From a virus (lineage: Duplodnaviria > Caudoviricetes): a DNA stretch of 55,092 nt. The notes beneath the pieces are model-generated. The model saw only the letters and a list, made by a program, of their open reading frames with translations. It made no database searches and was not told where the DNA came from. Position numbers and translations under genes: made by a program. This document shows, in pieces, positions 38,425 through 55,092 of this stretch (its first letter is position 1; every line of letters begins with the position of its first letter). The stretch spans positions 1 through 55,092 of IMG/VR virus record IMGVR_UViG_3300018432_000304; one strand, written 5' to 3'.

Positions 38425-38426
38425 TC

Positions 38427-38465: not shown

Positions 38466-38471
38466 ACCACT

Positions 38472-38942: not shown

Positions 38943-38956
38943 CGTGTGCTCCTTGC

Positions 38957-39307: not shown

Positions 39308-39339
39308 GTTGTCCTCCTAGTGCCTTACTCGATATCGGC

Positions 39340-39369
39340 AATCTACTGCTACATGCGCCAGGTCGTCAA
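39340..39369 (-). promoter_or_regulatory. Sigma70-like promoter TTGACG-N18-TAGATT
   Basis: AT-richer intergenic region upstream of the 39307 ATG. Confidence 0.6.
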
Positions 39370-39400
39370 TAGACGACATCGCTTATCCTGAGGAGGCCGC

Positions 39401-39676: not shown

Positions 39677-39677
39677 C

Positions 39678-40439: not shown

Positions 40440-40446
40440 TGGGGAG

Positions 40447-41064
40447 CTACGCGACAGTGGTCTGCTGCACTGATACGGTCCTCCTGCGGGTCAGCATCTT
40501 GCTGATGTGGGATTGACTGATCCCTAGCTGACGGGCGATCCCCCGCTGGGACATGCCCCGGTCGGCAAGCAGGAAGACCGACTCCGTCCACTTGGAATCG
40601 TAGAGGCGATTCGCGTCGGCGACCGCCCGGATTTTTTCACACTCCCGGCAAAGCCGGATTTGGCCGCCGTGACCTCGACGGGATCGCTTCCAGCGGGTGT
40701 TCTCTGAGGTCCATCGGTGGCCACGCTGGCACGTCCGGCGCTCTCGTGCGGACCGACGAACGTTGGCCGAACTGGTAGTTGGCGCCAGGTGCATCGGGTT
40801 GACGCATCTCCGGTGAGGGCACGAGTCCCCGCCGCGGCACTCGTCAGCTCGGTGGCAGAGGTGGTCAAGCACCTCGCTAGGGTCCAAGGACCGAACCATC
40901 GCTGCGTATACCAGGCGATGCGCGAGGTTTGTCGTCCCGTTCCTTCGCTGGCCAGGTGCGTGGCCGTACCCGGCCTTAGTGACGCCCCCTGGCCACACCC
41001 AGCACCTGGATAGATCGCTGGTGTCGATCAGCGCGAACAACTCGTCGAAGGTACGCTTACCCAC
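40447..41064 (-). CDS. HNH endonuclease with C-terminal HTH
   Basis: CWVW..GYG..AHR..LDHLC..CVNPMHL..N; MSQRGIARQLGISQSHIS. Confidence 0.85.
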   Translation of the reverse strand: MGKRTFDELFALIDTSDLSRCWVWPGGVTKAGYGHAPGQRRNGTTNLAHRLVYAAMVRSLDPSEVLDHLCHRADECRGGDSCPHRRCVNPMHLAPTTSSANVRRSARERRTCQRGHRWTSENTRWKRSRRGHGGQIRLCRECEKIRAVADANRLYDSKWTESVFLLADRGMSQRGIARQLGISQSHISKMLTRRRTVSVQQTTVA

Positions 41065-41219
41065 GTCGACCCCTCCCGGTCGGCCACGCCCCGAACCTGT
41101 TCCCGCAGGTGTCGGGGCTTCTTTATTGCCCTCGTAAGCATATCAAGAGGGGATCACAAATGGGTGACCATAGTCGGGTCGTCGACCCGGACCCGAGTAA
41201 CCACGAAGGGGAGAACCAC

Positions 41220-41486
41220 ATGTCCGAGCCCAACGGCTTCGCCGACCACGCCGAACCCGCGGCCCCGGTCGAGTCGAAGGTGAAGTGGGGTGCGCTCGCC
41301 GCCTACCTCGGCGGTGTCGCCGCCCTCGCGGTCGTCAACGCCGTCACCGGCAACGACAACCAGCTCCTCATCGCCGCCCTGCCCGACGCGATCGAGCCGT
41401 TCGTGTTGCCGGCCATCCCGGCGGTCCTGTCGGCGATCGGCGGGTTCTTCGCGAAGCACACCCCCCGCCCGGACCTGGGGGTCTGA
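41220..41486 (+). CDS. Holin
   Basis: VESKVKW..two TM helices..AKHTPR; next to endolysin. Confidence 0.7.
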   Translation: MSEPNGFADHAEPAAPVESKVKWGALAAYLGGVAALAVVNAVTGNDNQLLIAALPDAIEPFVLPAIPAVLSAIGGFFAKHTPRPDLGV

Positions 41487-41632
41487 TGTTCCCGATCCTG
41501 GCGATCGTGTGCTTCCTGCTCGTGGTGTTGCGCGCACCCATCGACCTGGACTTGACGAACCTCGGGCTCGTGTTCGTGGCCGCGTGGTGCCTGGTCGGTA
41601 ACTGGCCCATCGGAGGCCGCCTACCCCGATAG
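41486..41632 (+). CDS. Small two-TM protein
   Basis: TGATG coupling; hydrophobic. Confidence 0.6.
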   Translation: MFPILAIVCFLLVVLRAPIDLDLTNLGLVFVAAWCLVGNWPIGGRLPR

Positions 41633-41674
41633 CTCGCCCGGCCCCAGGTTCCCCGTCTTGGGCTGGGCAGCGAG

Positions 41675-41716
41675 ACGCCCCCCGTTCCAGCCTCGTGCTG
41701 GGGCGGGGGGCGTTTT
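41675..41716 (+). terminator. Intrinsic terminator ending the late operon
   Basis: ACGCCCCCCG..CGGGGGGCGT hairpin followed by TTT. Confidence 0.75.
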
Positions 41717-41737
41717 CGCGTTGGGTTAGAAGACCGG

Positions 41738-42058
41738 TCAACCGCCCTTCAGCGCGGCACGGAAATCGGCGGCCCACTTGTCGACCGGCAGCGGGAGCGG
41801 CTCTTCTCGCCCCACGTCGCGGGCTCCCCAGCACGGATGCTCCGGAGCGTGCGGGGACAAGACGCACAGGTCGTCCGCGTTCCCGTCGACCGGCTTCAAG
41901 CAGCGGCCAGGGTTGCGGACCGCGCTGAGGAGCACAGCCCACGTCCCGTCCAGGCCGTTGCGCTCCAAGTAACCGGCGAACTCCCGGACCGGGCAGCCGA
42001 CCGCCTGCCAGAGATCCAAGGTCAGGTACTGAAAGCCCCCACCCTCAGTCATGGTCAT
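41738..42058 (-). CDS. Hypothetical protein
   Basis: GAGG RBS; part of leftward small-gene array. Confidence 0.55.
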   Translation of the reverse strand: MTMTEGGGFQYLTLDLWQAVGCPVREFAGYLERNGLDGTWAVLLSAVRNPGRCLKPVDGNADDLCVLSPHAPEHPCWGARDVGREEPLPLPVDKWAADFRAALKGG

Positions 42059-42068
42059 CTCCTCTACC

Positions 42069-42341
42069 TCACCAGTCGAAGTACTTGTCGTAGCTGCCTT
42101 CGCCGCCGGTCGGCGCCGGCTCCTCCCAACTCACGGGGTGACCCACCCAGTAGAAGGGCGCGGGCGCGGTCCGCTCACCGTTCGGGTCCAGCACATCCCG
42201 GATTTCGACGCACACGGCGGCCGGGATCACCTCATCATGCAAATCCAGGCCGAGGTGCTCCGACAGCAGCCACTGCACGTCGTCGGGCTGCAGCATGCCC
42301 AGATCCTCGGCCAAGTCCTGCGCGGTCATCCCCTCAGCCAC
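42069..42341 (-). CDS. Hypothetical protein
   Basis: VAEGMTAQDLAEDLG..; start overlaps upstream stop. Confidence 0.55.
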   Translation of the reverse strand: MAEGMTAQDLAEDLGMLQPDDVQWLLSEHLGLDLHDEVIPAAVCVEIRDVLDPNGERTAPAPFYWVGHPVSWEEPAPTGGEGSYDKYFDW

Positions 42342-42758
42342 GGGAGGTCCCCCGCAAGCGTCGGTAGTCGAAGGCCGCCCACAGCAGCGCCACCGCCGCC
42401 ACCAGGACGGACCCGAAGACGATCCAAGCAGCTGACCAGTCGCTCCCACTCTGGATGGCGTTGATCCCCACGCCGATCAGGCCTGCCGTGTAGCCGACGG
42501 GCGCCATCACAGCACCGATGAACTCGCCGGGGTGGGGGACCCAGCCCTTGAACGCCAGAGCGTGGAGGCCGATGAGCGTCATCGCTGCGGGCCCGGCGAG
42601 GAGCAGGAGCGGCACCCACAGGGGTGAAAGCAGTACGGCTGCGGCCACCAGGGCAATGTCTCGGGCCCTGGAGCCCCCGTCCACGGTCACGGCGTCTCCT
42701 CCTCGTCCGGTGCCCACTCCGACCGCCATATCCTGCGCGGTCATCCCCTCAGCCACGG
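42316..42758. repeat. 28-bp direct repeat TCCTGCGCGGTCATCCCCTCAGCCACGG
   Basis: Identical copies at 42316-42343 and 42731-42758. Confidence 0.9.
42334..42690 (-). CDS. Multi-TM membrane protein
   Basis: GAGGAGGAG RBS; hydrophobic segments; flanked by 28-bp direct repeat. Confidence 0.6.
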   Translation of the reverse strand: MTVDGGSRARDIALVAAAVLLSPLWVPLLLLAGPAAMTLIGLHALAFKGWVPHPGEFIGAVMAPVGYTAGLIGVGINAIQSGSDWSAAWIVFGSVLVAAVALLWAAFDYRRLRGTSRG

Positions 42759-43068
42759 CCAGTACCACCGATCCCACTTCCCGGCCTTGCTGTGCTGGGT
42801 GTCCAGCGTGAGGGTGAGCCGGTATCGACGTCCACAGTCGCAGCGCCAGATCGCGCCGTGCCCGACGTCCATCCTCGGCATCTCGCAGTAGTGCGTGGTC
42901 TGGCGTCCAGCTCGTACGAGACGTCCTCCGCCCTGCTTCCAGCCGTGCTCGTGCAGCCAACGTCGGTCTGTATCGGCGAGCGCGCGGATGAAGACCTCGG
43001 CCTCTTCGGCGGTCATCTTCTCGTCAGCCACGGTTCTCCTCCTCGTCCGGCGCCCACTCCGACCGCCA
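42695..43068. repeat. 34-bp direct repeat (33/34 identical)
   Basis: Copies at 42695-42728 and 43035-43068. Confidence 0.9.
42741..43031 (-). CDS. Hypothetical protein (HYC..WRCDCG)
   Basis: RBS lies within upstream gene end; coupled start. Confidence 0.55.
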   Translation of the reverse strand: MADEKMTAEEAEVFIRALADTDRRWLHEHGWKQGGGRLVRAGRQTTHYCEMPRMDVGHGAIWRCDCGRRYRLTLTLDTQHSKAGKWDRWYWPWLRG

Positions 43069-43488
43069 ACCCGGCCTCCCGCGGTACACGGACGCGAGCA
43101 GACGCACCGTCGGGCACGGCCACGCGACACCGATGTGGCCGCTGCTGTTGATGGGGTAGCCGACGCAAGTCGAGCAGTACCTGCCGTCGTCGTTCTGCTC
43201 GCCAGTCCACGGCAGGTGCAGTTCGAGGATGCGGCGTTTCGCGGCCACCTCGGCGAGCACCCGCGCCGGATCATGACGGGCGATGTGGGCGGCCTGCTCC
43301 TCGCTGCGGACACCTCCACCCTCATAGCCAGGGCCGGCCACTTCAACGCCAGCTTGATCCTCAATGACGAAGGACCCCGTCCACCCACTGTCCTCACCAC
43401 GGATCCAGCGAAGCCCCCCGGCGGCCTGCGCCACCCGCTCGTCCTCGGCCACCTGCTCGCGCAGCCAGGCCACCAGCTCGTCGGTCAC
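43024..43488 (-). CDS. DUF6221-like protein
   Basis: LVAWLR..HIARHDPARVLAEVAAKRRIL..PCPTVRLLASVY..RPGW..EWAP. Confidence 0.8.
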   Translation of the reverse strand: MTDELVAWLREQVAEDERVAQAAGGLRWIRGEDSGWTGSFVIEDQAGVEVAGPGYEGGGVRSEEQAAHIARHDPARVLAEVAAKRRILELHLPWTGEQNDDGRYCSTCVGYPINSSGHIGVAWPCPTVRLLASVYRGRPGWRSEWAPDEEENRG

Positions 43489-43679
43489 GTCTTCGATCCT
43501 TCCGCACGCAGCTTCAACGTGGCCAGCGCGGCAGCGTAAAGCGTGCATCCAATGGACCGACACCGCGCACACCGACCTTTCCCGTCCGGCCGGTGCTCCC
43601 GCAGCAGCTTCTCCGGGTCACCCTGCCTGTCGATGAGGCGCACCAGGTCACCTGACACCCTCGCCTCTGGTTCCGCCAT
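43485..43679 (-). CDS. Small Zn-binding hypothetical protein
   Basis: EHRPDGKGRCARC..C. Confidence 0.55.
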   Translation of the reverse strand: MAEPEARVSGDLVRLIDRQGDPEKLLREHRPDGKGRCARCRSIGCTLYAAALATLKLRAEGSKT

Positions 43680-43762
43680 GACGGTCCTTCCCATTGCGTT
43701 GAGCAGGTGATTCCTGCGGATCGGGTTGGCCGCTGTCGGACCGCGGCCGCATACTCGGTGTT

Positions 43763-44182
43763 ATGGCGGAGACGGCACTCATCCCGGCCTGGGTCGCGCC
43801 GGCGGCCCGGGAGGTCGCCGACTGCCTGTGGATCGCCCACGCCTGCGCCGAAGAGGCCGGCCCCGGGTCGCGGTGGGCGCAGATCGTCGCGGTCATGCAG
43901 TGGGCCACCGACGGCGACGCAACCCGCGACGACGCGGTCGACATGCTCCTGGCCTCCGACGGCGCCGCCTACACCACCGTGGTGTGGCTCCTCGGCCGCG
44001 GCCCAGCCCCGTTGCGGCTGCCGCGCCGCAACCCCGACGGCACCACCCTCACCGAAACCCAGCTGTACGCCGAGTACATGCACGGTCTGACCGGGCTGCC
44101 GGAGCAGCGGCGTGACGCCGAGACGCGGGCTAGGAAGGACGCCGGCCACTACCGGCGTCTGGCTGCGCTGGTGCCGCACTAG
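43763..44182 (+). CDS. Hypothetical protein, possibly leaderless
   Basis: CATACT 7 nt before ATG; WLLG..P..LPRRNPDG motif. Confidence 0.6.
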   Translation: MAETALIPAWVAPAAREVADCLWIAHACAEEAGPGSRWAQIVAVMQWATDGDATRDDAVDMLLASDGAAYTTVVWLLGRGPAPLRLPRRNPDGTTLTETQLYAEYMHGLTGLPEQRRDAETRARKDAGHYRRLAALVPH

Positions 44183-44556
44183 CGTCCCCTCACACGCGCG
44201 GCACCAGCATCTTCATCGGCGGCTGGGATCCACGCTGGCGGCTCATCCCGCTGTGAAGGGATCAACAGACCCGGTACAGATCGTCGCCGCTCGAGCTCAT
44301 CCCGGGGGACGCGAGAGTTCCCGTACCCACGGCCGCCGTCGTACCTCTGCCAAATCGGGTCTGCGGCGATCTCCTTCCCGGAGTCTCGCATCTGCTCCTG
44401 ATGCTCTCGCCGCGCCCGAGAGATCTCCGCACCCAGGCGGGCTGCCACCACGTACTGGTCGTTCGGCGGCAGTTTCGACAGCTCCGCCGCCAGCTCAGCT
44501 GGATCCATGTCGAGCACCGCCCGCCGCAGCGGTGCCGGGATGTGGCGTGGCTTCAC
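44179..44556 (-). CDS. Hypothetical protein downstream of relaxase
   Basis: GTGA-coupled to relaxase stop. Confidence 0.55.
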   Translation of the reverse strand: MKPRHIPAPLRRAVLDMDPAELAAELSKLPPNDQYVVAARLGAEISRARREHQEQMRDSGKEIAADPIWQRYDGGRGYGNSRVPRDELERRRSVPGLLIPSQRDEPPAWIPAADEDAGAARVRGR

Positions 44557-47500
44557 GACCGCTCCCTCACCATCGCCAGCTCGTCGGCCTGCTCAGGTGC
44601 GGCGAGCCACTGCTGCTGCCGCACCCCGGCCTCTTCGTCCTCGCGGAGCTGGTCCGCCTGTTCGCGGGCCTCGATCTCCAGCAGCGTCTCCCTGGCGCGG
44701 GCCACCGCCTCCGCTGTGGTGTCGGCGTCGGGGACCTCGCGGCGCACACGGGGGTCGTGCTCCGTCGGGTCCGCCACGGCGACGTCGCGGAGGTCGGGCA
44801 CGTTCGTCTCCGGCGACACCGCAGCAACCGGCTCGTCGGTGTTCTCGTCGACCAGGTCGACCTCTGCGATCGGCCGCACCTCATCGCCGGCGACACGGTC
44901 CTGCGCTTCGGCGGCCAGCCACTCCGCCGCTGTCGTCTTGTCCGCCGGGTTCACCAGATCCACACCCCGCCGGCCCAGCTCGGCCTTCGACCGCTCCCCG
45001 CGGTCCCGGGTGCCCGCCGTGTGTAGATACCACCGGGTGCGGGCCTTGTCGGCTTCGTCGAGGTCGAGGGCGCGCTGCTCAAGCTCGTCGGCTTCCCGCT
45101 CCGCCTTCTCCGCCGCGCCGAGGAGGTCGACCTTCTCGTCGCCGTCGAGGGTGTCGGCGCGTGCCTTCCACAGCCCGGAGTCGGTGCGCTTCGCGGCGAC
45201 CGTCTCACTGGTGGTGGCGAGCTCGTCGGCGACGAACCGCGGAGCCAACGTCTGCTCCCGATCCCACGCAGCGGCGCGCACCAGCAGCTGACCGGTGGTG
45301 AGCATCGCCTCCTCCGGCCCCACATCCGGCAGGTCGAGGGCTGCGTGCGCGGTCGCCCACACGGCGTGCTTCTCCGCCAGACCCGCCGGGGGAGCAGCCC
45401 CGAGGGGGTCCTGCTCGTCGGTGTGCTCCATGTTCTCGCGGTGCGCGGCAGCCCAGCTGGCCCGGGATTCCCACTCGGCGCGGCGCAGCGGATCCTCCGG
45501 CACCGGCCCGAGCGTCTCCAGGGCCCACTTCGGCTGTTCCTCCGCGGTGCGCGCACCCAGCTCATGGCGGCGCTCATCGGCTGCGTCGGCCCGGGCCTCC
45601 AACCAGCCCTGCCACCGCTCCGACACCCCAGCCGGGATGAGGTCCCGGTACGAGGAGATCTGCGGGACCTTCTCGTTGAGGGTGTTGCGGATCCGGGCGT
45701 GCAGTACCCGCCCCACCGACGTCGCCCCCGTCAGAGACTTTCCGTCCAACGCCTCGTGCAGCACCTGCTCGGGGTTGCGGCCGGACACCTCGACGTAGCG
45801 GAGCAGCCGATCCACCGACCCCATCGCCTGATCCGCTGCGAGGGCCTCCCGCTGCTCCACAGTGATCGCACCGGTGGCCGCCAGCCGGTCCAGGGCCCGC
45901 GAGGTGGAGCCGGCGCGGACCTCGGCGATCCCCGCCAACAGGCGGTCCACCTGCCGCAGCGTTGACACCTCGTCTTCGCCGGCCTGGGCCTGCTCGGCGA
46001 GCGCCCCCCGCTCGGCCTCGACCCGCTCCAACCGGTCCGCCAGGACAGCCTTCGCCGTGCGCGCCTCCACGTCCTGCGCCTCACCCACCGGCGCATCCGA
46101 GGCAAGCGGCTGGGTCGTCACCCACGCGGTGTTCGCTTCACGGCCGCGGGTCATGCCGACGTAGCTGCCGGTCAGGTCATGCCCGGTGTCGACGGTGCGG
46201 CCCTGCGCCGCGTGCAGCGTGGACGCGTAGGCGAGGGACAGGTGCTCGGCCACATACGAGGCCGGCAAGGTGACCTCGACGCCCTTCCCGGTCTCCACCC
46301 GCAGCCCACCATCCGGGAGCGCGTCGAGGACCCGGTACGTCTGCCGGTTCACCACCGGCACCTCGAGACCCCAGTTGTTGCGCCGCGCCTGCACAAGGTC
46401 CCCGACCCCGGCGAGGTTGCCATCCCGACCGAGCGCCACACCGTCCTCGGCGACCCGCCCGAGGCGGACGAGCTCAGCGCGCATGGCCCCGGACAGGCGA
46501 CCGGCCTGCTCGTTCGAGGACACCATCAACAGCGACTGCTTCCCCGCGAGGGTGTCGGCCAGCCACGCCCTACCGGCGTCCGCTTCCGCCTCCTCCGCGG
46601 TCCCGCACGAGCGGAGCCGGCCGTGCTTGTCGTAGTCGTCCAGCACCGACACGTCCCCGTCACGCAGCCGCAGCGACGCCTCCCGTTCCCACTCCTGCTG
46701 GAACCGGCGAACCTCCGTCAGCTCATACCGGCGTGCGGCCGCGCCGACGTCGGCGAGCGCTCCACCCGGCCCGACCGCGGCCAACTGCAATGGATCCCCG
46801 ACGAGCAGCAACTTCGCGTTAGCTGCCTCGCAGCGGCGGGCGATGTCGGCGACGTCCTGGGTGGATGCCATCCCCGCCTCGTCCACCACGACGAGGTCAC
46901 CGTCACGCAGCTGCCACGTCGGCGACGTCTCCACGCTGGCGCGCCACTTCTCGAAGTTGAACGCCGTCACACCCTCATCGACCATCACATCGGCCGCGGT
47001 CTGGGAGGCGGTCAGGCCGATGGTGCGTCGCCCGTACTGCGCCCACACCTCGGCCAGCGTCCCGACAGTGAACGACTTCCCCGTCCCCGCCGCCGCGTCG
47101 AGCACCTCAACGCACGCACCAGAGGTCGCCACCCCACGCACCGCGGCGGCCTGGTCGACGCCCAGCTCGACACCAGCCGCCGCGAACCGCCGGGTGACCA
47201 GCGCAACCTGCGCGTCGGTCAGCTGCGCCGCACCTGTACGCACGGCGGCCCGCTCGAGGAGGCGGTCGTCGACCATCTGCCCGGAGGTGGCGTACTTCGC
47301 GGACCCCGGACGTTGGAACGCCGACAGGCCGTTCCGGAGCTGGAACTCCGACGGCAACCCGGCCGCATCCTCAGCCGCCACCACAACCGTCGCCTCGGCG
47401 AGAGCTTTGTCGGCGAGCCCCTCCAACAAGGGACGGATCCGGCCGGCAGGCAGGTCGAGGTTCGCCGGCAACGCCGACGACACCGCGAAGATCAGATCGG

Positions 47501-48755
47501 AACGGGTCCACGTCGCCTGGTTCTCACCCACCGCGTCCAGCGCGCGGGCGACCACCTGCGACGGCGACCACTCGTCAGCCGGGCCAGCGTCACGGGCGGC
47601 CAGGAAGTCGTGGGCGACCTTCTCCAGCCCCCCAGCGATCGCACCGCGGGCCTCACGTTCCCACCTGTCCAGCCGCTCCTCGTTCGTCTCCCCGTCATGA
47701 GACTTCGCCTTCCTGGTGAGCAGGGTGGCCTGCTCCCGCAGGTACTTCTGCTCATGCACCGACGCCTCACGGCCGTGGCGCTGCTCGTACTCGGCGATCA
47801 ACTCAGCGGCCTTCGCCGTCACCGCCCGCCGCCGTGACGAGAACAGGTCCCGTACGTCGCGGTCGACCCCGACGATCTCGCGGGACTTTCCGTCCGCGCT
47901 GGCCTCGAAGCGCGCGGAGAACGTGGCGGCCAGCTCCGCCTCAACAACCCGCTCGCCCACGGCGGCGGCGGACATGCGATGCAGCTTCAAGGCGCGTTCG
48001 TCGACACCGACCCACTCGCCGTCGGCGCGCCGGATCTTGTTGAGGATGGCCTGGTGCACGTGCAGCTGCGGGTCCCGGTCACGGGAGTCGTGCTGCAGGA
48101 ACTGGGCCACCACGAACTGGTTGGCGTCGCCCCACCGGTTCGCGCCGCCGCCGTGCTTCCCAACCCGGGCGTACCCGGCGACCTCCTCCAGGTAGTCGAT
48201 GCTGGCGCGGGCACCGGCCATGACGGCCTGTTCGACGGCCTTGTTCATGGCCGCCCACGACTCGGCTTCCTCGAGCTTGCCGGCGGCCCGGGCTTCGTTG
48301 GCGGCCCGTTCGAACGCCACCGACAGCACGGTGATGCTCTTGCTGGGGGAGAACGTCATGTCGAAGAACGCGACCGGCTGACGGGCCTCCCGCTCCGCGT
48401 ACGCCAGGAGCTCCGCCCGCCGTTCCGGTGTGGCGTCGGGTTCCCGCTCGACCGCCGCCCGGTACAGCTCGTCGGAGGTCTTGTAGTGCTTGTGTGGGCG
48501 ACCCAGGGTGCGGGCGTCCACCCACCGCTCCCGGGTGTGGGTGGCCTCGTCGCGGGGGTCGAGCAGGCGGGCGTAGACGGCCTCCATCAGGTCGGAGTCG
48601 ACTACACCCGCCAGCCCGAGCGCGTGGGCGCCCTGCCCGTACCAGAGGCCGGGTGGCTCACCCGCCGCGACGGCGCCGGAGTAGTAGCCCTCCCGACCAC
48701 CCGCCACCGGGCCGGTCAAGTACGAAACGGAGTAACCCTTCGCGAAACCCAGCAT
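44553..48755 (-). CDS. mobF: MOBF relaxase (TrwC/TraA-like) fused to RecD-like helicase
   Basis: EGYY..GEPPGLWYG; DMTFSPSKSIT; QHDSRDRDPQLHVH (HUH); AAGTGKS, VVDEAGM, VGDPLQL, HAAQGRTVD, YVGMTRGR. Confidence 0.95.
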   Translation of the reverse strand: MLGFAKGYSVSYLTGPVAGGREGYYSGAVAAGEPPGLWYGQGAHALGLAGVVDSDLMEAVYARLLDPRDEATHTRERWVDARTLGRPHKHYKTSDELYRAAVEREPDATPERRAELLAYAEREARQPVAFFDMTFSPSKSITVLSVAFERAANEARAAGKLEEAESWAAMNKAVEQAVMAGARASIDYLEEVAGYARVGKHGGGANRWGDANQFVVAQFLQHDSRDRDPQLHVHQAILNKIRRADGEWVGVDERALKLHRMSAAAVGERVVEAELAATFSARFEASADGKSREIVGVDRDVRDLFSSRRRAVTAKAAELIAEYEQRHGREASVHEQKYLREQATLLTRKAKSHDGETNEERLDRWEREARGAIAGGLEKVAHDFLAARDAGPADEWSPSQVVARALDAVGENQATWTRSDLIFAVSSALPANLDLPAGRIRPLLEGLADKALAEATVVVAAEDAAGLPSEFQLRNGLSAFQRPGSAKYATSGQMVDDRLLERAAVRTGAAQLTDAQVALVTRRFAAAGVELGVDQAAAVRGVATSGACVEVLDAAAGTGKSFTVGTLAEVWAQYGRRTIGLTASQTAADVMVDEGVTAFNFEKWRASVETSPTWQLRDGDLVVVDEAGMASTQDVADIARRCEAANAKLLLVGDPLQLAAVGPGGALADVGAAARRYELTEVRRFQQEWEREASLRLRDGDVSVLDDYDKHGRLRSCGTAEEAEADAGRAWLADTLAGKQSLLMVSSNEQAGRLSGAMRAELVRLGRVAEDGVALGRDGNLAGVGDLVQARRNNWGLEVPVVNRQTYRVLDALPDGGLRVETGKGVEVTLPASYVAEHLSLAYASTLHAAQGRTVDTGHDLTGSYVGMTRGREANTAWVTTQPLASDAPVGEAQDVEARTAKAVLADRLERVEAERGALAEQAQAGEDEVSTLRQVDRLLAGIAEVRAGSTSRALDRLAATGAITVEQREALAADQAMGSVDRLLRYVEVSGRNPEQVLHEALDGKSLTGATSVGRVLHARIRNTLNEKVPQISSYRDLIPAGVSERWQGWLEARADAADERRHELGARTAEEQPKWALETLGPVPEDPLRRAEWESRASWAAAHRENMEHTDEQDPLGAAPPAGLAEKHAVWATAHAALDLPDVGPEEAMLTTGQLLVRAAAWDREQTLAPRFVADELATTSETVAAKRTDSGLWKARADTLDGDEKVDLLGAAEKAEREADELEQRALDLDEADKARTRWYLHTAGTRDRGERSKAELGRRGVDLVNPADKTTAAEWLAAEAQDRVAGDEVRPIAEVDLVDENTDEPVAAVSPETNVPDLRDVAVADPTEHDPRVRREVPDADTTAEAVARARETLLEIEAREQADQLREDEEAGVRQQQWLAAPEQADELAMVRERS

Positions 48756-48759
48756 CGGC

Positions 48760-48954
48760 TCAGCGACCCCTGGCGCGGGCGGCCATCCGCTCCGGGGCGG
48801 GCGCCACCCACTCCCATGGCGTCACCGCCGACATCAACCCGGCGAACGCCTCCCGGGCGAGCTGCACCGCCTTATCGGTGCGCGCACCCACCGGGGCGGT
48901 CATCGCCCCCCACGTCCCCGACTGCGGGATGCCATGGTGCTTGTAGTCGCTCAC
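48760..48954 (-). CDS. Small hypothetical protein
   Basis: GTGA-coupled; ends ..ARARGR. Confidence 0.45.
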   Translation of the reverse strand: MSDYKHHGIPQSGTWGAMTAPVGARTDKAVQLAREAFAGLMSAVTPWEWVAPAPERMAARARGR

Positions 48955-49199
48955 CGGGCCCACCCGTCGTCCTGGCTGGTCCTGTAGGCGCCGTCCCAAA
49001 CGGTGACGTCCCGGAGCCTGCTGGCGTGGTCCTTCATCTCTTCGGCCTTCTGCAGCCAGCGTTCGGCCTCGTCGGTTCCCCGGTCGTGCCGGCCTGCGAG
49101 GTTCCGGTAGAACGCGGAGGCTTCGGTGAACTCGTCCATCTGCCCGCCATACAGTTCCTCCCGGGAAGGGACGAACGGTCGTGGCTCCTTCTCGCTCAT
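48951..49199 (-). CDS. Small protein ending DDGWAR
   Basis: ATGA coupling; shared C-terminal motif. Confidence 0.6.
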   Translation of the reverse strand: MSEKEPRPFVPSREELYGGQMDEFTEASAFYRNLAGRHDRGTDEAERWLQKAEEMKDHASRLRDVTVWDGAYRTSQDDGWAR

Positions 49200-49495
49200 C
49201 GGGCCCACCCCTGTGCCTGCTCCCGCGTGTCCTGCGTCGCGTCCCAGGCCCGGTCGGTCTCGTCGAAGTGGGCTTCGAGCTCGGCGACGCGGAGGATGTT
49301 CTGCATGGCCTGCTCCTGCCGCTCGGTGCGCTCAGGGAGGCTGGTGAGCCGGTCGAACGTCCGGCGGTCGCGTGAGGCCTGCGCGTCTCGTTCGGCGTAG
49401 GCCTGCTCAACCTCGGCCTGGATCCGCGCCCGGTCGCTCTTCTCCTGGGGGGCGCGCCAGATCTGGTTGAGGGAGTGCTCGTTCGCGCTGCTCAT
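49196..49495 (-). CDS. Small coiled-coil protein ending QGWAR
   Basis: ATGA coupling; shared C-terminal motif. Confidence 0.6.
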   Translation of the reverse strand: MSSANEHSLNQIWRAPQEKSDRARIQAEVEQAYAERDAQASRDRRTFDRLTSLPERTERQEQAMQNILRVAELEAHFDETDRAWDATQDTREQAQGWAR

Positions 49496-49743
49496 CGGGC
49501 CCACCCGTCGTTCCTGGCGGCCGACTGCTGTGCGCCGTCCCACACCCAGACCTCAGGAGAGTCGATGAAGGCGGCGCACAGGTAGCCGTAGTCGCTCATG
49601 GGCGCGAGCTGCTCCACAGGAACCTCCTGCGCCCCGGCTCGGTGCGAGTCAACGGCGGCCCTGACCTCGTCCATGTCGGCGCCGTGGTCGAAGGTGGTGT
49701 CTCCGCCGCTCCGTGCGGCGACGGCCTCGTCGTACTGGGTCAT
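49492..49743 (-). CDS. Small protein ending NDGWAR
   Basis: GAAGGA RBS before ATG; shared C-terminal motif. Confidence 0.6.
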   Translation of the reverse strand: MTQYDEAVAARSGGDTTFDHGADMDEVRAAVDSHRAGAQEVPVEQLAPMSDYGYLCAAFIDSPEVWVWDGAQQSAARNDGWAR

Positions 49744-49899
49744 TTGATCTTCCTTCGCTGCTGTTCACACCATCGGATCGGAGGATGCTTACGGTGTGGA
49801 CTGCTTGATTCGGGCTTGTGGTGATCTTGTGTGAGTGGTGATCGTGCTGAGATGTGGATCTAGATAGGACTGAATGGACTAGCTGAACTCGGAAATGGA

Positions 49900-50550
49900 C
49901 TAGTGCACAGGGGGGTGGAGCTTCGCGTCGTCGTACGCCTGCGCATCCGCGATCTGCTCAGCTGACGGCTCCGGCGGAAGACCCTGCGACGTCCACGCAG
50001 CCGCGACAGCGCGCATGTGCCCTGCCAGCGGCGCAGCCACCGGAGAACAAGCCGCCGCGCCACCAGGCCGGTGCTTGCCCAGGTCACACGAGCCCAACGC
50101 CTTCTGGATGCGCTCCACGACACGAGGCCGCTGCTGGTCGTGCCACATACCGGCGTGCGCCCCCCACACGCGGGCCGCGTAGGCGTCGGCGTGCGCGGTC
50201 CGCAGCCACCACAGCTCCTCGATCACCCAGGGATGCCACGCCCAGCACGGCGGGAGCTGCACCCCCGGGTAGCGCAGGTAGACGGCGTCCAACCACTGCA
50301 CGAGGTCTTCGAGGAGCGCCTCGGCCTTGTCGGGGTCGGACAGCAGCAGCCACGACGCGGCCGGGCGGGTGTCGTCGATCCCCCGGAGGCGGTCGATCAC
50401 CCGCCCCAACGTTTCCCCGAGATCCCCGACGGCCTGGTCGAGTTCGCCCACCCGCTCCACCGTGGGCTCCCACTCGCCCACCCGGTGGGTGAGGCGGTCG
50501 ATCTCCCGGGCGAGCGCACCAACGTCGGGTGTCGGGTCAGTGGGCGACAT
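49900..50550 (-). CDS. DUF4913-like conjugation-associated protein
   Basis: LVQWLDAVY..PPCWAWHPWVIEELWWL..AH..WHD; next to coupling protein. Confidence 0.7.
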   Translation of the reverse strand: MSPTDPTPDVGALAREIDRLTHRVGEWEPTVERVGELDQAVGDLGETLGRVIDRLRGIDDTRPAASWLLLSDPDKAEALLEDLVQWLDAVYLRYPGVQLPPCWAWHPWVIEELWWLRTAHADAYAARVWGAHAGMWHDQQRPRVVERIQKALGSCDLGKHRPGGAAACSPVAAPLAGHMRAVAAAWTSQGLPPEPSAEQIADAQAYDDAKLHPPVH

Positions 50551-52300
50551 CGGTCAGCTCCCGTGGGTGGGCGAGCACCGGGTGGGTGGGCGCGGTGGGT
50601 GTGGGTGCCGGGTGGGCGACCACGTGGGTGGGCGACAGAGCGGGCGCCCAGGGGGTGAACCCGCGGCGCTTCCACACCGGGTGCACCCACCCGACGGCGG
50701 GTGGCATGTCGGAGAACACGACCACCCGGAACGGTGGGAGGCTCGCGATCTGGGCGGGCGCCAGGACGGGTGTCTTCCGCACCGAGGTGGAGGTGACCTT
50801 GCCGTCGCCGCCGCGGGTCTTCACGACCTCGTCACGGTCACCGGCGAGGGAGGCCCACGCGTTGAGGTCGTCGGGGTCCTTCGTGCCGCCGTAGAGCATG
50901 ACCGAGCCCGCGTTGTTGAGGATCTTGGAGGCCCCGGTGCGTCCCCAGCGATCCACCAGGTCCGCTCGGGACTGGAACGCGCAGATCAGCTGAATCCCGG
51001 AGCCGCCGGAGTCACCGGACCAGTCGGGCAGCGGCACCGGCGACACCCGCGCGGCCTCGTCGAGCGCAAGCATGAGGGGCGGGTCAAGCCGCCCAGCCGG
51101 CTGCAGCGCCGCCAACCGGCGGGCCTCCCGCGCCACATACCCGGTGAACGCAGCCAGCAGCGGCGCTGTGTGCGCCTCATGCCGCCCCAGCAGGTACACC
51201 GTGCCGCGGTCGCGCAGCAGCGTGGCCACGTCGAACGGGGCCCCACCCTCGGTGGCGGCGACCGCGTCCGGGGAGGTCAGCCACCCCAACGCCGGCGTGA
51301 TGGCGTTCGTGATCGACGACTGCGTTTTGTCGGTCAGCGCAACGAACTGGTTAACGTCCTCGAGGAACGCCGTCGGGTCCGGTGACCGCTTCAGCAGGGC
51401 GTTGAGCTCCGCCGAGGCGGCCGCCGGGTTCGCCACCCACCGCTGCACATCGCGCATGCTCCGACGACCGGACGGGTCGAGAGCGGCGGCGTGCAGGAAC
51501 GACGCGAAGTGCCGGCGGGCCTGACCATCCCAGAACTCCCGCTCGTCCCCTTCGGCCTCGGGGATCATGTCGGCGGCCCGGGCGGTGGCAGTGGTGGGGT
51601 CCTGGCAGCCGGTGAGCGGGTTGAACGTGACGGTCGACTCCAGCTCACCGAGCCCACCCGGGTTGAACACCCACACCTCACGCCCGCCGGTCTCCCGGGC
51701 GGTGCGGGTGAGCCCGATGATTTCGGTGCGGGTGGAGGTGGTGAGGACCGCGCCGGGTGCGTCGGAGATGGCCCCGGCGAGCCACGCCGTCTTCCCCTTC
51801 CTTGGCCCGCCGATGGCGAGCACGACGTCTTCGCACGACGCCCACAGCCACATCCCACCGGAGCGGCACAGCTTCACACCGAGCTCGGTGGTGGGTGTCC
51901 GCCACCTCGCCCACCAGCCGACGTCGCGGAGGTGTGGGCGGACAGCGGCGGCCTTGCGGTGCATCGCCCACCAGGACCCGTGCCAGGCGACCTGCCACAG
52001 GGTGGCTACCCCGGAACGTCGGCGGGCGCGTTCCCCGGCGCGGGTGACGGTGCGGGCGTTCCCGGAGCGGAGCCATGCCACCCACCCGGTGACGACCCCG
52101 CCGCCCACGAGGAGGGCGGCCAGGAACGCGGTCGTGCCGTGGGCGAGGTACACCCACACGGCGAGACCCATCCCGAGCCCGGCGAGGGCGGTGACGATGA
52201 GCCTGCGGTCGACCTGGCGGGAAAGCGAACGAACTACAGCGGTGACGGCGACGGTGGCGACGACCCCGCCGGCGGCGAGCAGCAGCAGGGTGGGGTTCAT
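50537..52300 (-). CDS. Type IV coupling protein (VirD4/TraG-like)
   Basis: N-terminal TM helices; GGPRKGKT Walker A; VLTTSTR, FNPL, FW; LALDEAA; QSRADL..WG. Confidence 0.9.
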   Translation of the reverse strand: MNPTLLLLAAGGVVATVAVTAVVRSLSRQVDRRLIVTALAGLGMGLAVWVYLAHGTTAFLAALLVGGGVVTGWVAWLRSGNARTVTRAGERARRRSGVATLWQVAWHGSWWAMHRKAAAVRPHLRDVGWWARWRTPTTELGVKLCRSGGMWLWASCEDVVLAIGGPRKGKTAWLAGAISDAPGAVLTTSTRTEIIGLTRTARETGGREVWVFNPGGLGELESTVTFNPLTGCQDPTTATARAADMIPEAEGDEREFWDGQARRHFASFLHAAALDPSGRRSMRDVQRWVANPAAASAELNALLKRSPDPTAFLEDVNQFVALTDKTQSSITNAITPALGWLTSPDAVAATEGGAPFDVATLLRDRGTVYLLGRHEAHTAPLLAAFTGYVAREARRLAALQPAGRLDPPLMLALDEAARVSPVPLPDWSGDSGGSGIQLICAFQSRADLVDRWGRTGASKILNNAGSVMLYGGTKDPDDLNAWASLAGDRDEVVKTRGGDGKVTSTSVRKTPVLAPAQIASLPPFRVVVFSDMPPAVGWVHPVWKRRGFTPWAPALSPTHVVAHPAPTPTAPTHPVLAHPRELTDVAH

Positions 52301-52557
52301 GACGTCACTACCCGGAGGCTGACGAGCAGGATCGCAACCAAGCCGATAGCCATCACGACGGGCCACACTGCGAAGCCACTGAGAACGGCGGCCACGAGGC
52401 CGCCGGCAGCAGCTGCCACGTCGAGGGCGAGCGTTATGCGGCTCATCGGCCGGTGCCTGGTGAGCCGGCGCCGGTCGACGAGGTTCCCTGCTACGAGACA
52501 GACGCCCGCGGCGATTAGGGCGATGGCCGCGGGATCGGCTACGACAGAGAGGTTCAT
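52297..52557 (-). CDS. Small membrane protein
   Basis: Hydrophobic segments; ATGA coupling. Confidence 0.6.
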   Translation of the reverse strand: MNLSVVADPAAIALIAAGVCLVAGNLVDRRRLTRHRPMSRITLALDVAAAAGGLVAAVLSGFAVWPVVMAIGLVAILLVSLRVVTS

Positions 52558-53228
52558 GACGCGTGTCCGTTCGTGGAGTAGGTGCGGATGAGCTGCTTCG
52601 CCTTGTGCTCGGTGACGCCCAGCTCCCGCTGCAGGCGGACCTTCCCGAGGCCCTGGTGGACGAGCTGGCGGGCCTTGTCGTGGTCGACGTCCTGCGGACG
52701 CGGGTTGGGGGTGGGCCTGCGTGGCGGCTCGGCAACAGGCACGAGCGCGACGGTGGGTGCGCTGCGCCACTGCACGGACATGCCGTTGTCCTCGAGCGCC
52801 GGCAGCTCCTCGCCGGGCTCCTCCTCGACTACCGGTGCTGGCACGTCGGCGCGACCGACGAGGACGAGCAGGTGGACCGTGCCGCCGACCACTGCCGGTG
52901 CAATGGCGCCGACGATGACGGCGGCCCACCACGGCGGTGTCACCTCGAGGGCGTGCCAGCCGGTGGCGGCGGCGTTCGCGGCCACAGTGAGGGCGAGCAG
53001 CGCCCAGGTGAGCCACCGCGCGAACCGGCGTGCGTCCTCACGGCCCCCCGGGGACAGCCACACCGCGCACGACACGGCCGCGCCGGCATCTACCGCGAGA
53101 GGGAGGAGCGGCGCCAAGCTCTCGTTGATCCGGACAGCGACTGCGAGGCTCCGCAGCGCGTCGAACGACAACACGGCAGCGGCGCCGAGGACGACCGCGA
53201 GACCGAGCATGGACAGCCAGCGGCTCAT
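52554..53228 (-). CDS. DUF2637-like membrane protein with C-terminal HTH
   Basis: LSFDALRSLA..LLPLAVDAG..TVAANA; KVRLQRELGVTEHKAKQLI. Confidence 0.75.
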   Translation of the reverse strand: MSRWLSMLGLAVVLGAAAVLSFDALRSLAVAVRINESLAPLLPLAVDAGAAVSCAVWLSPGGREDARRFARWLTWALLALTVAANAAATGWHALEVTPPWWAAVIVGAIAPAVVGGTVHLLVLVGRADVPAPVVEEEPGEELPALEDNGMSVQWRSAPTVALVPVAEPPRRPTPNPRPQDVDHDKARQLVHQGLGKVRLQRELGVTEHKAKQLIRTYSTNGHAS

Positions 53229-53482
53229 CGGTCGATCACCCGCGAGTACAGGAGCGCCCCGCCGGCGACGGCGAGCAGGACGACGAGCCCGATGACGGCG
53301 ATGTGGAACCGGCCGTCGGTGTCGAGGTAGACGCGGATGACCGCGCCGGAGGCAATGGCTGCGAGCACGGTGAGCGGTACGAGCCACACCCCGGACTCGG
53401 CGGACCGGCAGCCCGCGGGGGGGAGGGGCACCGCGAGGGGCTGCGTGGCCTGCTCGGCTGGGGCCTTGGTGGGGGCGCTCAC
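53225..53482 (-). CDS. Two-TM membrane protein
   Basis: Coupled; hydrophobic. Confidence 0.6.
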   Translation of the reverse strand: MSAPTKAPAEQATQPLAVPLPPAGCRSAESGVWLVPLTVLAAIASGAVIRVYLDTDGRFHIAVIGLVVLLAVAGGALLYSRVIDR

Positions 53483-53790
53483 CGTGCCCGCCCCTCGTCG
53501 CCATGCTGGTCCAGCAAGCTCGACCAGTCGACCGTGTCGGATCGACGCACGGCCTCGTCTGCTGCGAGGAGCTCGGCTTGGGTGCTCCTGCGGACTTCCG
53601 CCCAGTACGCCGCGTGCGTTCGGTCGAAGTCCTGTGTCGGGCTCTGTGGGTTGTCGGGGTCGAGTTCCCGCTCGCCGGCGTCCCGCTCGGCCAGATGCAG
53701 GTTGAGCAGCCGCATGACCTGGTCATGGCGGACGGGCGGGACGGCTTCGTTGCCGCGGCCGACCCGCAGGATGCCGCGGAGGCCCTTCAT
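53479..53790 (-). CDS. Hypothetical protein
   Basis: ATGA coupling; MKGLRGILRVG. Confidence 0.55.
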   Translation of the reverse strand: MKGLRGILRVGRGNEAVPPVRHDQVMRLLNLHLAERDAGERELDPDNPQSPTQDFDRTHAAYWAEVRRSTQAELLAADEAVRRSDTVDWSSLLDQHGDEGRAR

Positions 53791-53999
53791 CGGGTCCGCC
53801 CCTCGGCGTCGCTGTCGTGGGCTGCGAGCCAGGTGGTGAGGCCGTCGCGGATCGCTTCTGCCTCGTCGACACGCCAGTCCACCCACTGGTTGCCGTCGGG
53901 GTGTCCCAGCGTGAGGCGGACGCGGTCACCCGAGGCGCTGAGGGTGGTGGTGCCGTGGTCGGTGGTGTCGGTGCTGGGTGGGCTGACAGGATGCTGCAC
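53787..53999 (-). CDS. Hypothetical protein, first gene of mobilisation operon
   Basis: GAAGGAGG RBS before GTG. Confidence 0.55.
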   Translation of the reverse strand: MQHPVSPPSTDTTDHGTTTLSASGDRVRLTLGHPDGNQWVDWRVDEAEAIRDGLTTWLAAHDSDAEGRTR

Positions 54000-54092
54000 A
54001 GCCCCTCCTTCCTGCTGGTTCAGGGGGTGGGGTAGGCCCGGCTGGGAGGTGCGAACTCCTGGTCGGGCCGTCTTCGTGTGGACGCCTAGCCC

Positions 54093-54144
54093 TGTCCACA
54101 TCTGGACAGTAGCGCGGATCCTCAGTACTGTCCAGATGTGGACA
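54093..54144. promoter_or_regulatory. Symmetric divergent promoter/operator (19-bp perfect IR)
   Basis: TGTCCACATCTGGACAGTA..TACTGTCCAGATGTGGACA; TGGACA-N17-TACTGT on both strands. Confidence 0.75.
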
Positions 54145-54851
54145 ACCACATGGATAACCTGATCAACCATGACGAGCCGCGAGGAGCGCAACGCGTTGAA
54201 GAACTTGAGCCGGCTCCTCGCCAGCGACCTTGCGACGATCGACCAGGAGGAGCTCCTGGCAGGCGTCCGCGACGCCGAGGTGGCCTTCGACAGGTCGCCG
54301 GAGTGGAGCGGTCAGCTCCTGGCGGAACTGAAGCGGAGAGGCTGGTCGTGGCCACGTCTCGCTGCGATGACCGGGATGAAGAAGACGACCGTCATTCGTC
54401 GAGCGCAGCCGTACCGATAGACCGCCCGCACACGTACATCCGACCGCTTGCGCCGGACAGAGGCGTCGTCTACCGCCACCACGACGCGGCCGGTGTCCTG
54501 CTCTACGTCGGCTCAACGACGGTCTTGGCGATGCGCCGCCGTCAGCTCTGTCACGGGAGTTCCGCCCGCTGGTGGCGGTTCGTGGTGCGAGTCGAGCACG
54601 AGGAGCACGAGAATCGGCGCGCTGCTCTGGACGCCGAGCGAGCGGAGATCCACGCCGCGACGCCGATCTTCAACCGCAACCGGCCAGGGGGAATCGAGGA
54701 GCACGAGGCGCGGGAATTCGCGTACCTCGCGGCACACTCATGCGTCCCGGACTGGTGGGGGCCGAAGCTGCGTTCGCTCCGGAAGCTCGATCCCGTGACT
54801 CGACGAGCGCACGTGGACGTGCTGCTGTCTGGGATCGGCGTACCTGTTTGA
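54138..54851 (+). CDS. GIY-YIG nuclease-domain protein (start uncertain; overlaps HTH gene)
   Basis: VVYRHHDAAGVLLYVGST..R..H..WW..ALDAERAEIH..PIFN. Confidence 0.55.
   Translation: MDNHMDNLINHDEPRGAQRVEELEPAPRQRPCDDRPGGAPGRRPRRRGGLRQVAGVERSAPGGTEAERLVVATSRCDDRDEEDDRHSSSAAVPIDRPHTYIRPLAPDRGVVYRHHDAAGVLLYVGSTTVLAMRRRQLCHGSSARWWRFVVRVEHEEHENRRAALDAERAEIHAATPIFNRNRPGGIEEHEAREFAYLAAHSCVPDWWGPKLRSLRKLDPVTRRAHVDVLLSGIGVPV
54169..54420 (+). CDS. Small HTH regulator
   Basis: LKRRGWSWPRLAAMTGMKKTTVIRRA; divergent from mobilisation operon. Confidence 0.7.
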   Translation: MTSREERNALKNLSRLLASDLATIDQEELLAGVRDAEVAFDRSPEWSGQLLAELKRRGWSWPRLAAMTGMKKTTVIRRAQPYR

Positions 54852-54888
54852 ACCGCTGGCAAGCGCCCGAGCCGAAGAGTGATCCACA

Positions 54889-54907
54889 TACTCCACGGGT
54901 ACTCCAC
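54889..54907. repeat. TACTCCAC direct repeat, candidate integrase arm site
   Basis: Two copies about 150 bp inside the att core. Confidence 0.4.
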
Positions 54908-55058
54908 AGATTCGGGATCGCAGCGCCACTCGCGGGCGCTCACTCGGGCTCGTTCCGGCCGAGCTCTGAGTAGGCGGCCCTGCAGGTCAGCCCGCTAATC
55001 AGCGCGTCCCGACGCGCACCCACGCTCACTACGGCTCATCGCCCGCCGAGCACTCGCA

Positions 55059-55090
55059 GGGTTACTGGTTCGAGTCCAGTCGGAGGAGCA
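55059..55090 (+). other. att core: 3' fragment of tRNA-Asn
   Basis: GGGTTACTGGTTCGAGTCCAGTCGGAGGAGC = T-arm plus acceptor strand; upstream sequence lacks D and anticodon arms. Confidence 0.75.
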
Positions 55091-55092
55091 TA

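Follow-up and report, generated by a model that had tools for sequence, protein, structure and literature searches.

Transfer in virions and transfer by conjugation are held apart in textbooks, and in the surveys consulted, phage elements that carry conjugation genes count as rare or as potential artefacts; in excerpts of one such survey, conjugation-related elements occur in 6 of 222 E. coli phage-plasmids, and co-integrates or artefacts are suspected (PMC10123127). The closest described systems include integrative mobilisable elements (IMEs; for the concept, see PMC5704250), which integrate in integrative and conjugative elements (ICEs), as satellites do in prophages (excerpts of PMC11389934). 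They also include phage-ICE tandems, of which Huang et al. (Sci Adv 2026, PMC13651849, in part) count 612 besides nested ICE::Phage and Phage::ICE forms, and the Streptomyces plasmid-phage pZL12; Streptomyces tra genes encode an FtsK-like double-strand DNA translocase (passages of PMC3583192). In the open-access papers searched we found no description of an integrating phage that carries a relaxase together with a type IV coupling protein (T4CP). Here we analyze the IMG/VR record IMGVR_UViG_3300018432_000304 over its entire 55,092 bp (hereafter, the window), in which a tailed-phage gene set is followed by a leftward relaxase/T4CP operon of ~10 kb (44.2-54.2 kb; hereafter, the module). Judging from gene content and order, this operon very probably belongs to the phage genome as an accessory component that is inherited with it.

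The record is classed as 'linear' with a CheckV completeness of 100, has a G+C content of ~70%, and yielded 73 gene calls with a codon-bias model trained on long open reading frames (ORFs). A preliminary description, made from the letters alone, had read it as a complete virion and lysis gene set running into a leftward relaxase/T4CP operon. PHROGs and Pfam agree with this reading: terminase, portal, capsid, tail and lysis genes are all present, the gene set of a siphovirus-type phage, and the preliminary calls of a VirD4-like protein, a MOBF relaxase-helicase and a DUF2637-like protein all have Pfam matches (Table 1). The relaxase matches TrwC at its N-terminus (PF08751, E 1.2e-45, residues 9-370, above the curated cut-off) and RecD-like AAA_30 in its helicase part (E 2e-48, residues 531-716), while its C-terminal extension of about 450 aa found no match in Pfam. 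Across 14 aligned relaxases (alignment A1), Y12, Y24, Y25, H222, D223, H232 and H234 are invariant, as are the Walker columns G557, G559, K560, D625 and E626. We take the invariant tyrosine and histidine columns to be the catalytic tyrosines and histidine triad of MOBF enzymes; together with the Walker columns and the 1400-aa frame, they indicate that the relaxase is intact. The T4CP matches TraG-D_C, T4SS-DNA_transf and TrwB_AAD_bind (E 9e-19, 3e-14 and 5e-07, all above cut-offs), has transmembrane (TM) segments within residues 1-77 and contains GKT and DEA strings in its translation. Between these two genes lies g66, whose family occurs in 62 of 90 loci and always in this position; four of its residues (C102, H106, C155 and H160) are invariant in alignment A3 and could bind a metal. 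The preliminary label of g66 as DUF4913-like did not hold up, as the protein has no Pfam match at E≤0.01 and a search of 15 family members with PF16259 at E≤1 matched none of them; DUF4913 occurs on 13% of the members of the closest ESM-Atlas cluster (score 0.93), a weak lead, and a PDB profile search found no relative.

We found 674 homologues of the relaxase at E≤1e-20, and those with names are, with few exceptions, Pseudonocardia MobF relaxases. Searches of genome and viral contigs with single relaxase proteins returned no loci, and the 14-sequence A1 profile was needed; it retrieved 77 genome loci and 13 IMG/VR loci, onto which the 73 window genes were mapped by tblastn. By this mapping most loci have just the module core in common with the window (of 92 loci, relaxase in 91, g66 in 65, T4CP in 65 and DUF2637 in 30). 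Three viral contigs, L080, L081 and L083, encode relaxases 66-69% identical to that of the window and keep its order of g60, DUF6221, g57, endolysin, sortase, g45 and g44. In all three, g57, g59 and g60 are syntenic beside the relaxase, and g60 is also found in Pseudonocardia zijingensis. The small ORF directly downstream of the relaxase has matches in the same place in L081 and L083 (35% identity, E 9e-11 and 2e-7). This ORF and g60 converge at the junction of phage and module, where the preliminary description had pointed to a shared CTAG (44179-44182); it is the overlap of their two stop codons, and both genes are conserved.

Two viral records place the module inside long phage genomes. In G003 (72,180 bp, CheckV 93%), the gene order of the window is kept from terS to g69, module included, with a portal 78% and a major head protein 76% identical. 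Past the module G003 continues with a NUDIX gene, a 73-aa tyrosine-integrase relic and a large serine recombinase, then a 20-kb early-gene array with Prim-Pol/D5 and RusA, and finally homologues of the window's left end (g12, 87%). G002 (69,184 bp) reads from early genes (g9, 86%) through a tyrosine integrase and a tRNA/tmRNA-3'-like fragment into the module, followed by g60/g57, endolysin, sortase and tail genes, and then a different head module and TerL; its integrase is the only one in the whole record. In both genomes the module is thus flanked by the lysis/tail arm on one side and the integrase/early arm on the other, and it adjoins the presumed attP, the att fragment having the same orientation as in the window. 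For G002 the attP call is tentative because no intact tRNA with the 3' end of G002 was found among the loci compared; Rfam gave only a weak match of the fragment to a tmRNA 3' end (E 0.014). The terS of G003 starts at nt 61 and the TerL of G002 occupies 67273-68709 of 69,184, so both records end at the boundary between early arm and terminase, which is where cos or pac ends lie. These positions hint that G002 and G003 may be complete linear genomes with the module inside. The genome size is plausible, given that the window's portal is 49-53% identical to the portals of Gordonia siphoviruses with genomes of ~76 kb. The contig ends and the genome size are also indirect hints at infectious particles that would package such a genome. 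As a separate observation, the integrase relic of G003 (47238-47363; loci L101/L083), which retains the C-terminal part of PF00589, adjoins the intact large serine recombinase, which suggests that the integration module of this phage was replaced.

A relative is integrated in the genome of a cultured isolate, P. zijingensis CGMCC 4.1545 (locus L059 on the 812-kb contig C1, of which 141-265 kb, or 124 kb, were examined). Here, an intact tRNA-Tyr(GTA) at 157699-157781 has a 412-aa tyrosine integrase beside it, and an exact 51-bp direct repeat of the 3' part of the tRNA occurs at 157731 and 248708; its 26-nt core is present in just these two copies in the 124 kb, even with up to 4 mismatches allowed. 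One pair of repeats therefore encloses the integrase, early genes, virion genes and module, ~91 kb in all. Between the repeats lie genes for a methyltransferase, TerL, portal, a protease/MuF-like protein, major head protein, adaptor, tape measure and tail proteins, followed by g60, relaxase, g66 and T4CP. The stretch from the T4CP to attR encodes helix-turn-helix (HTH) proteins, a DNA ligase, DUF5753 and DUF6879 and no recombinase, and no serine recombinase was found in the genome. The window's portal has no match in P. zijingensis, whose head module differs by PHROGs. The claim of the preliminary description that phage and module form one element, with the module inside the att boundary, is thus supported by its internal position in G002 and G003 and by the single att pair in P. 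zijingensis. The layout it had predicted, with attL (tRNA plus integrase) at one end and the module next to attR at the other, is the one seen in the isolate, at tRNA-Tyr. In P. zijingensis, the relaxase (G006:C1:230905-235238) is read as two ORFs with a 4-nt overlap, one of 402 aa for the TrwC part and one of 1042 aa for the helicase part; the split may be natural, or it may stem from a frameshift or a sequencing error.

The window stops 2-3 nt past a tRNA-like 3' fragment. As the preliminary description had proposed, this is a tRNA-Asn core: positions 55067-55089 (23 nt) equal the 3' end of the intact tRNA-Asn(GTT) of Pseudonocardia parietis, and the identity extends over the whole interval listed in Table 1. 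ARAGORN found no intact tRNA in the window, and Rfam gave no match for the fragment. At the left end a gene is truncated (ORF 2-214, 5'-open); we found no terminal repeats, and joining the end to the start yields no sensible ORF continuation. A second att site or a duplication flanking the module, either of which had been named beforehand as speaking against a single element, was looked for in the window without success. The 23-nt core has no second copy in the window at ≤3 mismatches, and the last 243 nt share no repeat of ≥13 nt with the rest of the window, shorter matches being at chance level. Searches of the window with PF00589 and PF00239 found no tyrosine or serine recombinase, and searches for AAA_10 (VirB4-type) and FtsK_SpoIIIE were also negative. 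The preliminary statement that integrase, internal att copies and VirB4 are missing is therefore backed by dedicated searches; for transposase and VirB6, which it had also listed as missing, there is the general result that Pfam scans of 40 window ORFs showed none, no family-specific search having been made.

To assess the assembly, Logan contigs from one soil-metagenome run, probably the source sample, were aligned to 35093-55092. A contig of 13,055 nt from this independent assembler spans 35093-47170 with one mismatch at a depth of 8.98 and so bridges the junction of phage and module; the next contig, 47141-51756, lies inside the module at a depth of 8.95. Because these data come from the same sample, they support the absence of an assembler artefact and nothing else independently. 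At 55053-55092 the assembly graph fans out into unitigs of 32-34 nt with depths of 149-200, compared with ~9 for the phage, and contigs with other flanks have depths of 8.88, 4.07 and 3.72. The contig ends at the tRNA-Asn core because many organisms in the sample have this core in common, and this end fits an integrated attR and a free attP alike. Dips in read depth at 52.4-53.1 kb and 53.8-54.4 kb were not counted as evidence of anything, and many short read 'joints' with sides of 20-21 nt look like metagenome noise. The contig appears to be short of about 15 kb when compared with G002 and G003; this part would hold the integrase and most of the early arm, including the immunity and replication genes. 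An integrase is found at the equivalent place in G002, G003 and P. zijingensis. The window is quite probably most of a temperate siphovirus genome, with a Pseudonocardia-like actinobacterium as its host.

Phylogeny and distribution separate the phage-linked modules from a larger set of non-phage relatives. In a FastTree phylogeny of 75 rows (ORFs <1200 aa, 20 of 93 cluster members, were left out, and the 1042-aa P. zijingensis ORF entered as a partial row), the five phage-linked relaxases fall on one side of a branch with an SH-like support of 93, and together with two viral-contig rows they form a group of seven with a support of 100. The lysis/att side is the part of the genome with which the module travels; at least three head modules occur together with it, and its four integration systems comprise tRNA-Asn, a tyrosine integrase with a tRNA/tmRNA-like core, a serine integrase and tRNA-Tyr. 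G012, with a portal 70% identical, has the sortase region and also a holin-like gene but none of g56-g73. Of 12 long viral records with portals 45-78% identical to that of the window, only G003 has the T4CP, and the module is absent from G012; the module is therefore accessory. In non-phage loci the core is accompanied by WhiB (30 loci), tyrosine integrase (15), DUF3987 (7) and HTH proteins, and these loci look like small integrative elements. A metagenome scan of 80 loci, most of them on short contigs, found no further phage-linked case, and none of the 80 had more than a g60-like or g40-like match. Among 50,697 deposited phage genomes none has a T4CP homologue; relaxase matches in deposited phages cover the helicase part only, at 25% identity (Mycobacterium phage Adler), and a megablast of positions 6000-30000 against them gave no match.

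Some further relaxase loci deserve mention in their own right. L030 has a tRNA-Asn fragment (9780-9802) 200 bp upstream of its relaxase that shares TCGCAGG and the core with the window, and L054 (P. parietis) has an intact tRNA-Asn (7785-7857) 2 kb from a truncated relaxase. The relaxase of L014, on a contig of a metagenome-assembled genome labelled Dehalococcoidia (a Chloroflexota bin), lies deep within the Pseudonocardia clade, which is probably a binning error rather than a gene transfer.

These data are best explained by a temperate phage with the gene order att, integrase, early genes, terS/TerL, head, tail, surface/sortase, lysis, module, att, in which the module itself would run g56-g60, relaxase, small genes, g66, T4CP, DUF2637, regulators. 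The module would be derived from the relaxase-T4CP-g66-DUF2637 core of the small integrative elements common in Pseudonocardia chromosomes. As it lies directly beside attP, it would be excised, replicated and packaged with the phage. After excision, the relaxase would nick a putative origin of transfer (oriT) on the phage circle, the T4CP would pass the complex of relaxase and single-stranded DNA on to a mating channel that a different element resident in the cell provides, and the phage could then enter cells by contact besides infection. We consider this explanation as a whole rather probable. Conjugative mobilization of the phage is the most likely function of the module, although we infer the nicking, the transfer and the need for a helper, and our confidence in it is evenly poised. 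That an integrating tailed-phage lineage sends its genome as single-stranded DNA through a borrowed or self-encoded minimal mating channel is a more tentative proposition, which we regard as possible and somewhat doubtful.

Several observations weigh against this explanation, and some of them favor other roles for the module. For oriT, all 11-mers common to the five phage-linked modules lie in coding sequence, and the fold of the 156-bp spacer upstream of the small genes, the operon's largest non-coding gap, is not significant (z 0.84). No helper channel was identified: AAA_10 and FtsK-type ATPases were not found in any of the five phage records, and each of five Pseudonocardia genomes has a single AAA_10 ORF (1011-1218 aa) that may not be conjugative; as single conserved ORFs, these were not counted as evidence of a type IV secretion system. 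The P. zijingensis relaxase is read as two ORFs, the true physical ends of G002 and G003 follow from position only, and the CheckV completeness of 100% conflicts with the integrase and early arm that we take to be missing. Furthermore, the module is absent from 11 of the 12 long portal-sharing viral records, and the phage therefore does not need it. One alternative is that the module serves the phage itself, in rolling-circle replication or end processing, or by excluding conjugative DNA that comes in or interfering with it. HUH relaxases are related in mechanism to rolling-circle initiators, the searches for oriT and a channel came back empty, and the module sits beside lysis and immunity-type genes. 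Against such a role, G003 has its own Prim-Pol/D5 replication protein, relaxase, g66, T4CP and DUF2637 are kept in the order of non-phage transfer elements, and 11 of the 12 close virion relatives do without the module; we consider it unlikely, if still worth weighing. The module might instead be a self-sufficient minimal transfer system in which the T4CP, DUF2637 and small membrane proteins form a conduit of their own. The non-phage relatives have no conserved neighbor of VirB4 size within 10 kb, which counts against our explanation and, over 90 loci with the conserved core, for such a system; the operon encodes membrane proteins (DUF2637, g69 and the 85-aa ORF), and actinomycetes transfer plasmids with very few genes, as with the Streptomyces Tra translocase (passages of PMC3583192). 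The flank comparison covered 10 kb on each side only, which limits the force of this argument. To our knowledge, every known VirD4-type T4CP partners a channel that contains VirB4, and a self-sufficient module is quite unlikely.

Alternatively, the module could be a separate IME that adjoins the prophage or is nested in it and moves on its own. The core is common in small Pseudonocardia integrative elements, 15 loci of which have their own tyrosine integrase; other relaxase elements use tRNA-Asn too (L030 and L054); G003 keeps its 73-aa integrase relic beside the module; and excerpts of the literature describe IMEs nested in ICEs (PMC11389934) and ICEs inserted into phages (PMC13651849). An IME of this kind should bring its own integrase and att sites, whereas the window has neither an integrase nor a repeat flanking the module, G002 has a single integrase, and in P. 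zijingensis one att pair surrounds phage and module with no other recombinase nearby. The position of the module and its phage-side neighbors are conserved across elements with three different integration systems, and the phage-linked relaxases form a clade of their own, all of which makes an independent IME very unlikely. Lastly, the arrangement could be an artefact, either a chimeric metagenome assembly or a viral call that includes host DNA: the window is a metagenome contig ending at a repeat node, and co-integration or misassembly may account for phage-plasmids with conjugation genes (PMC10123127, in part). As a second assembler bridges the junction at equal depth, and the architecture is found again in three other viral contigs, each from a different sample than the window, and in the genome of an isolate, this is barely credible, and an accessory module inherited by the phage remains our preferred account.

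The remaining genes of the module and of the phage are listed in Table 1. In the operon, the four small overlapping genes upstream of the relaxase have no Pfam match, and their junction sequence is repeated (family D1); one gene, g62, has weak homologues in L080, L081 and G003. Farther upstream, g68 and g69 are conserved in G002 and G003. A near-perfect palindrome in the divergent region between the operon and g72 carries a TGTCCA-N4-TGGACA motif that is unique to the window among 113 loci compared; the palindrome was considered as oriT and rejected, since it is not conserved in relatives. Between the lysis genes and g60, at 42296-43068, repeats of 34-48 bp (families D4 and D7) join the starts and ends of successive small minus-strand genes, which suggests a cassette-like duplication. 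The sortase gene and g44-g46 (34869-37499) are kept between tail and lysis genes in relatives with and without the module, and g44, g45 and g47 are conserved in G001-G003 and G012; a simple pattern search saw no LPXTG or LAXTG in g44-g46. The DUF3307 gene in the early arm is 57% identical to a homologue in the P. zijingensis prophage and 34% identical to one on Natronoglycomyces albus plasmid p1, a plasmid that also encodes the closest annotated plasmid MobF relaxase.

Table 1. Coordinates, strands and basis of assignment for features of the 55,092-bp window.
Feature	Coordinates	Strand	Basis
End of early arm, small rightward genes	1-5590	+	g3, g7-g13 homologues at far end of G003 and start of G002
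DUF3307 gene, early arm	387-803	+	Pfam
Packaging, head and tail module, including large tail/fibre proteins	6192-31117	+	PHROGs; collinear with G003, 37-87% identity
terS	6192-6563	+	PHROGs
TerL	6539-8176	+	PHROGs
Portal	8939-10414	+	PHROGs
Protease	10398-11396	+	PHROGs
Scaffold	11820-12392	+	PHROGs
Major head protein	12458-13639	+	PHROGs
Major tail protein	15253-15801	+	PHROGs
Tape measure	16747-20397	+	PHROGs
Dit	20394-21281	+	PHROGs
J-like fibre	27069-30953	+	PHROGs
Tail-accessory/surface genes: LtfC-like, LamG, GH16, three signal/TM proteins (g44-g46), sortase	31114-37499	+	Pfam, TM segments
Sortase	37011-37499	+	Pfam
RHH/repressor-like gene	38472-39002	-	PHROGs, Pfam
M15_4 endolysin	39678-40439	+	PHROGs, Pfam
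Weak HTH ORF	40447-41064	-	PHROGs, Pfam
Two small TM ORFs, holin-like by hydropathy only	41160-41486, 41486-41632	+	Hydropathy
Small genes travelling with the module, g56-g59 (interval includes g60)	41738-44182	- (g60 +)	Synteny
g57	42069-42341	-	Synteny
DUF6221 gene	43024-43488	-	Pfam, E 3.5e-31
g60	43763-44182	+	Synteny
Small conserved ORF directly downstream of relaxase	44179-44556	-	tblastn
MOBF relaxase-helicase, 1400 aa	44553-48755	-	Pfam TrwC and AAA_30
Four small overlapping genes, three ending GWAR	48760-49743	-	Gene calls; repeat family D1
AT-richer 156-bp spacer with short direct repeats, candidate promoter or oriT only	49744-49899		Frame plot
g66, conserved protein	49900-50550	-	Alignment A3
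VirD4/TraG-type T4CP, N-terminal TM helices	50537-52300	-	Pfam, TM segments
TM ORF, 85 aa	52297-52554	-	TM segments
DUF2637 membrane protein	52554-53228	-	Pfam
g69, 2 TM	53225-53482	-	TM segments
g70	53479-53790	-	Gene call
g71	53787-53999 (or to 54191)	-	Gene call
Palindrome, 26-nt arms, each with TGTCCA-N4-TGGACA, candidate operator	54093-54144		Repeat search
g72	54169-54420	+	Gene call; homologue in L086; no Pfam match
g73	about 54582-54851	+	Gene call; no Pfam match
att core, last 31 nt of tRNA-Asn(GTT), 3' fragment only	55060-55090	+	Identity to P. parietis tRNA

In the phages described here, the relaxase and T4CP constitute an inherited, att-proximal part of several diverged temperate phages, one of them in a cultured, non-pathogenic isolate. 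Because cultured P. zijingensis carries a relative, the question of transfer is directly testable. If such phages do send their genomes through a mating channel as single-stranded DNA, they could lysogenize or grow lytically in cells that lack their receptor, adsorption alone would no longer set their host range, and they would make up a class of mobile elements of their own, 'integrative mobilisable phages'. If transfer were shown, receptors would cease to limit host range and the spread of prophages, counts of relaxases in genomes would include phages, and virome pipelines that drop 'plasmid-like' genes as contamination would need revisiting.

Compared with known systems, the combination is a hybrid of phage and IME, each kind already known. 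With IMEs and mobilizable plasmids, which have a relaxase and a T4CP and no mating-pair formation genes, the module shares the relaxase-T4CP-g66-DUF2637 order seen in Pseudonocardia integrative elements. AAA_10 and FtsK_SpoIIIE are absent from all five phage records, other channel families not having been searched. MobF relaxases on plasmids of Natronoglycomyces, Amycolatopsis, Pseudonocardia and Streptomyces are 33-37% identical, and Amycolatopsis pA387, typed as 'mobilizable, MOBF', is among these relatives. IMEs likewise integrate site-specifically at tRNA genes without a channel ATPase. However, they have no virion genes, whereas the carrier here is a complete tailed-phage genome of ~70 kb that encodes terminase, capsid, tail and lysis proteins, and unlike IMEs the module has no integrase of its own. 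The relaxase has the same arrangement, a TrwC domain followed by an AAA_30 helicase, as TrwC of R388 and TraI, which we take to be its named MOBF relatives, but here the enzyme is encoded by a phage, with no cognate oriT or accessory proteins identified.

Phage-ICE tandems, as far as excerpts of PMC13651849 describe them, also join a prophage to co-transferable conjugation genes, frequently at tRNA att sites, and share with our proposal the idea of prophages that travel by conjugation. Yet in those excerpts the tandem contains a complete ICE (virB4, virD4 and relaxase) that has an integrase and att sites of its own, and the authors speak of a functional interplay 'rather than a hybrid element'; here there is a single att pair, a single integrase, no VirB4, and a 10-kb module that a phage lineage has inherited. 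Phage-plasmids, too, unite virion genes and conjugation-related genes in one element (passages of PMC10123127 and PMC7969092), but they are extrachromosomal, while the relatives here integrate (attL and attR in P. zijingensis) and the architecture is kept in diverged members. Among actinomycetes, the Streptomyces plasmid-phage pZL12 (Zhong et al. 2010) is a temperate phage that reportedly transfers by conjugation too (excerpts of PMC3583192 and PMC7157519). According to those excerpts, pZL12 is extrachromosomal and relies on a Streptomyces-type major tra gene with two adjacent genes rather than on a relaxase and a VirD4-type T4CP, the pair encoded by the integrating phages described here, in which FtsK_SpoIIIE was found in none of the five records tested.

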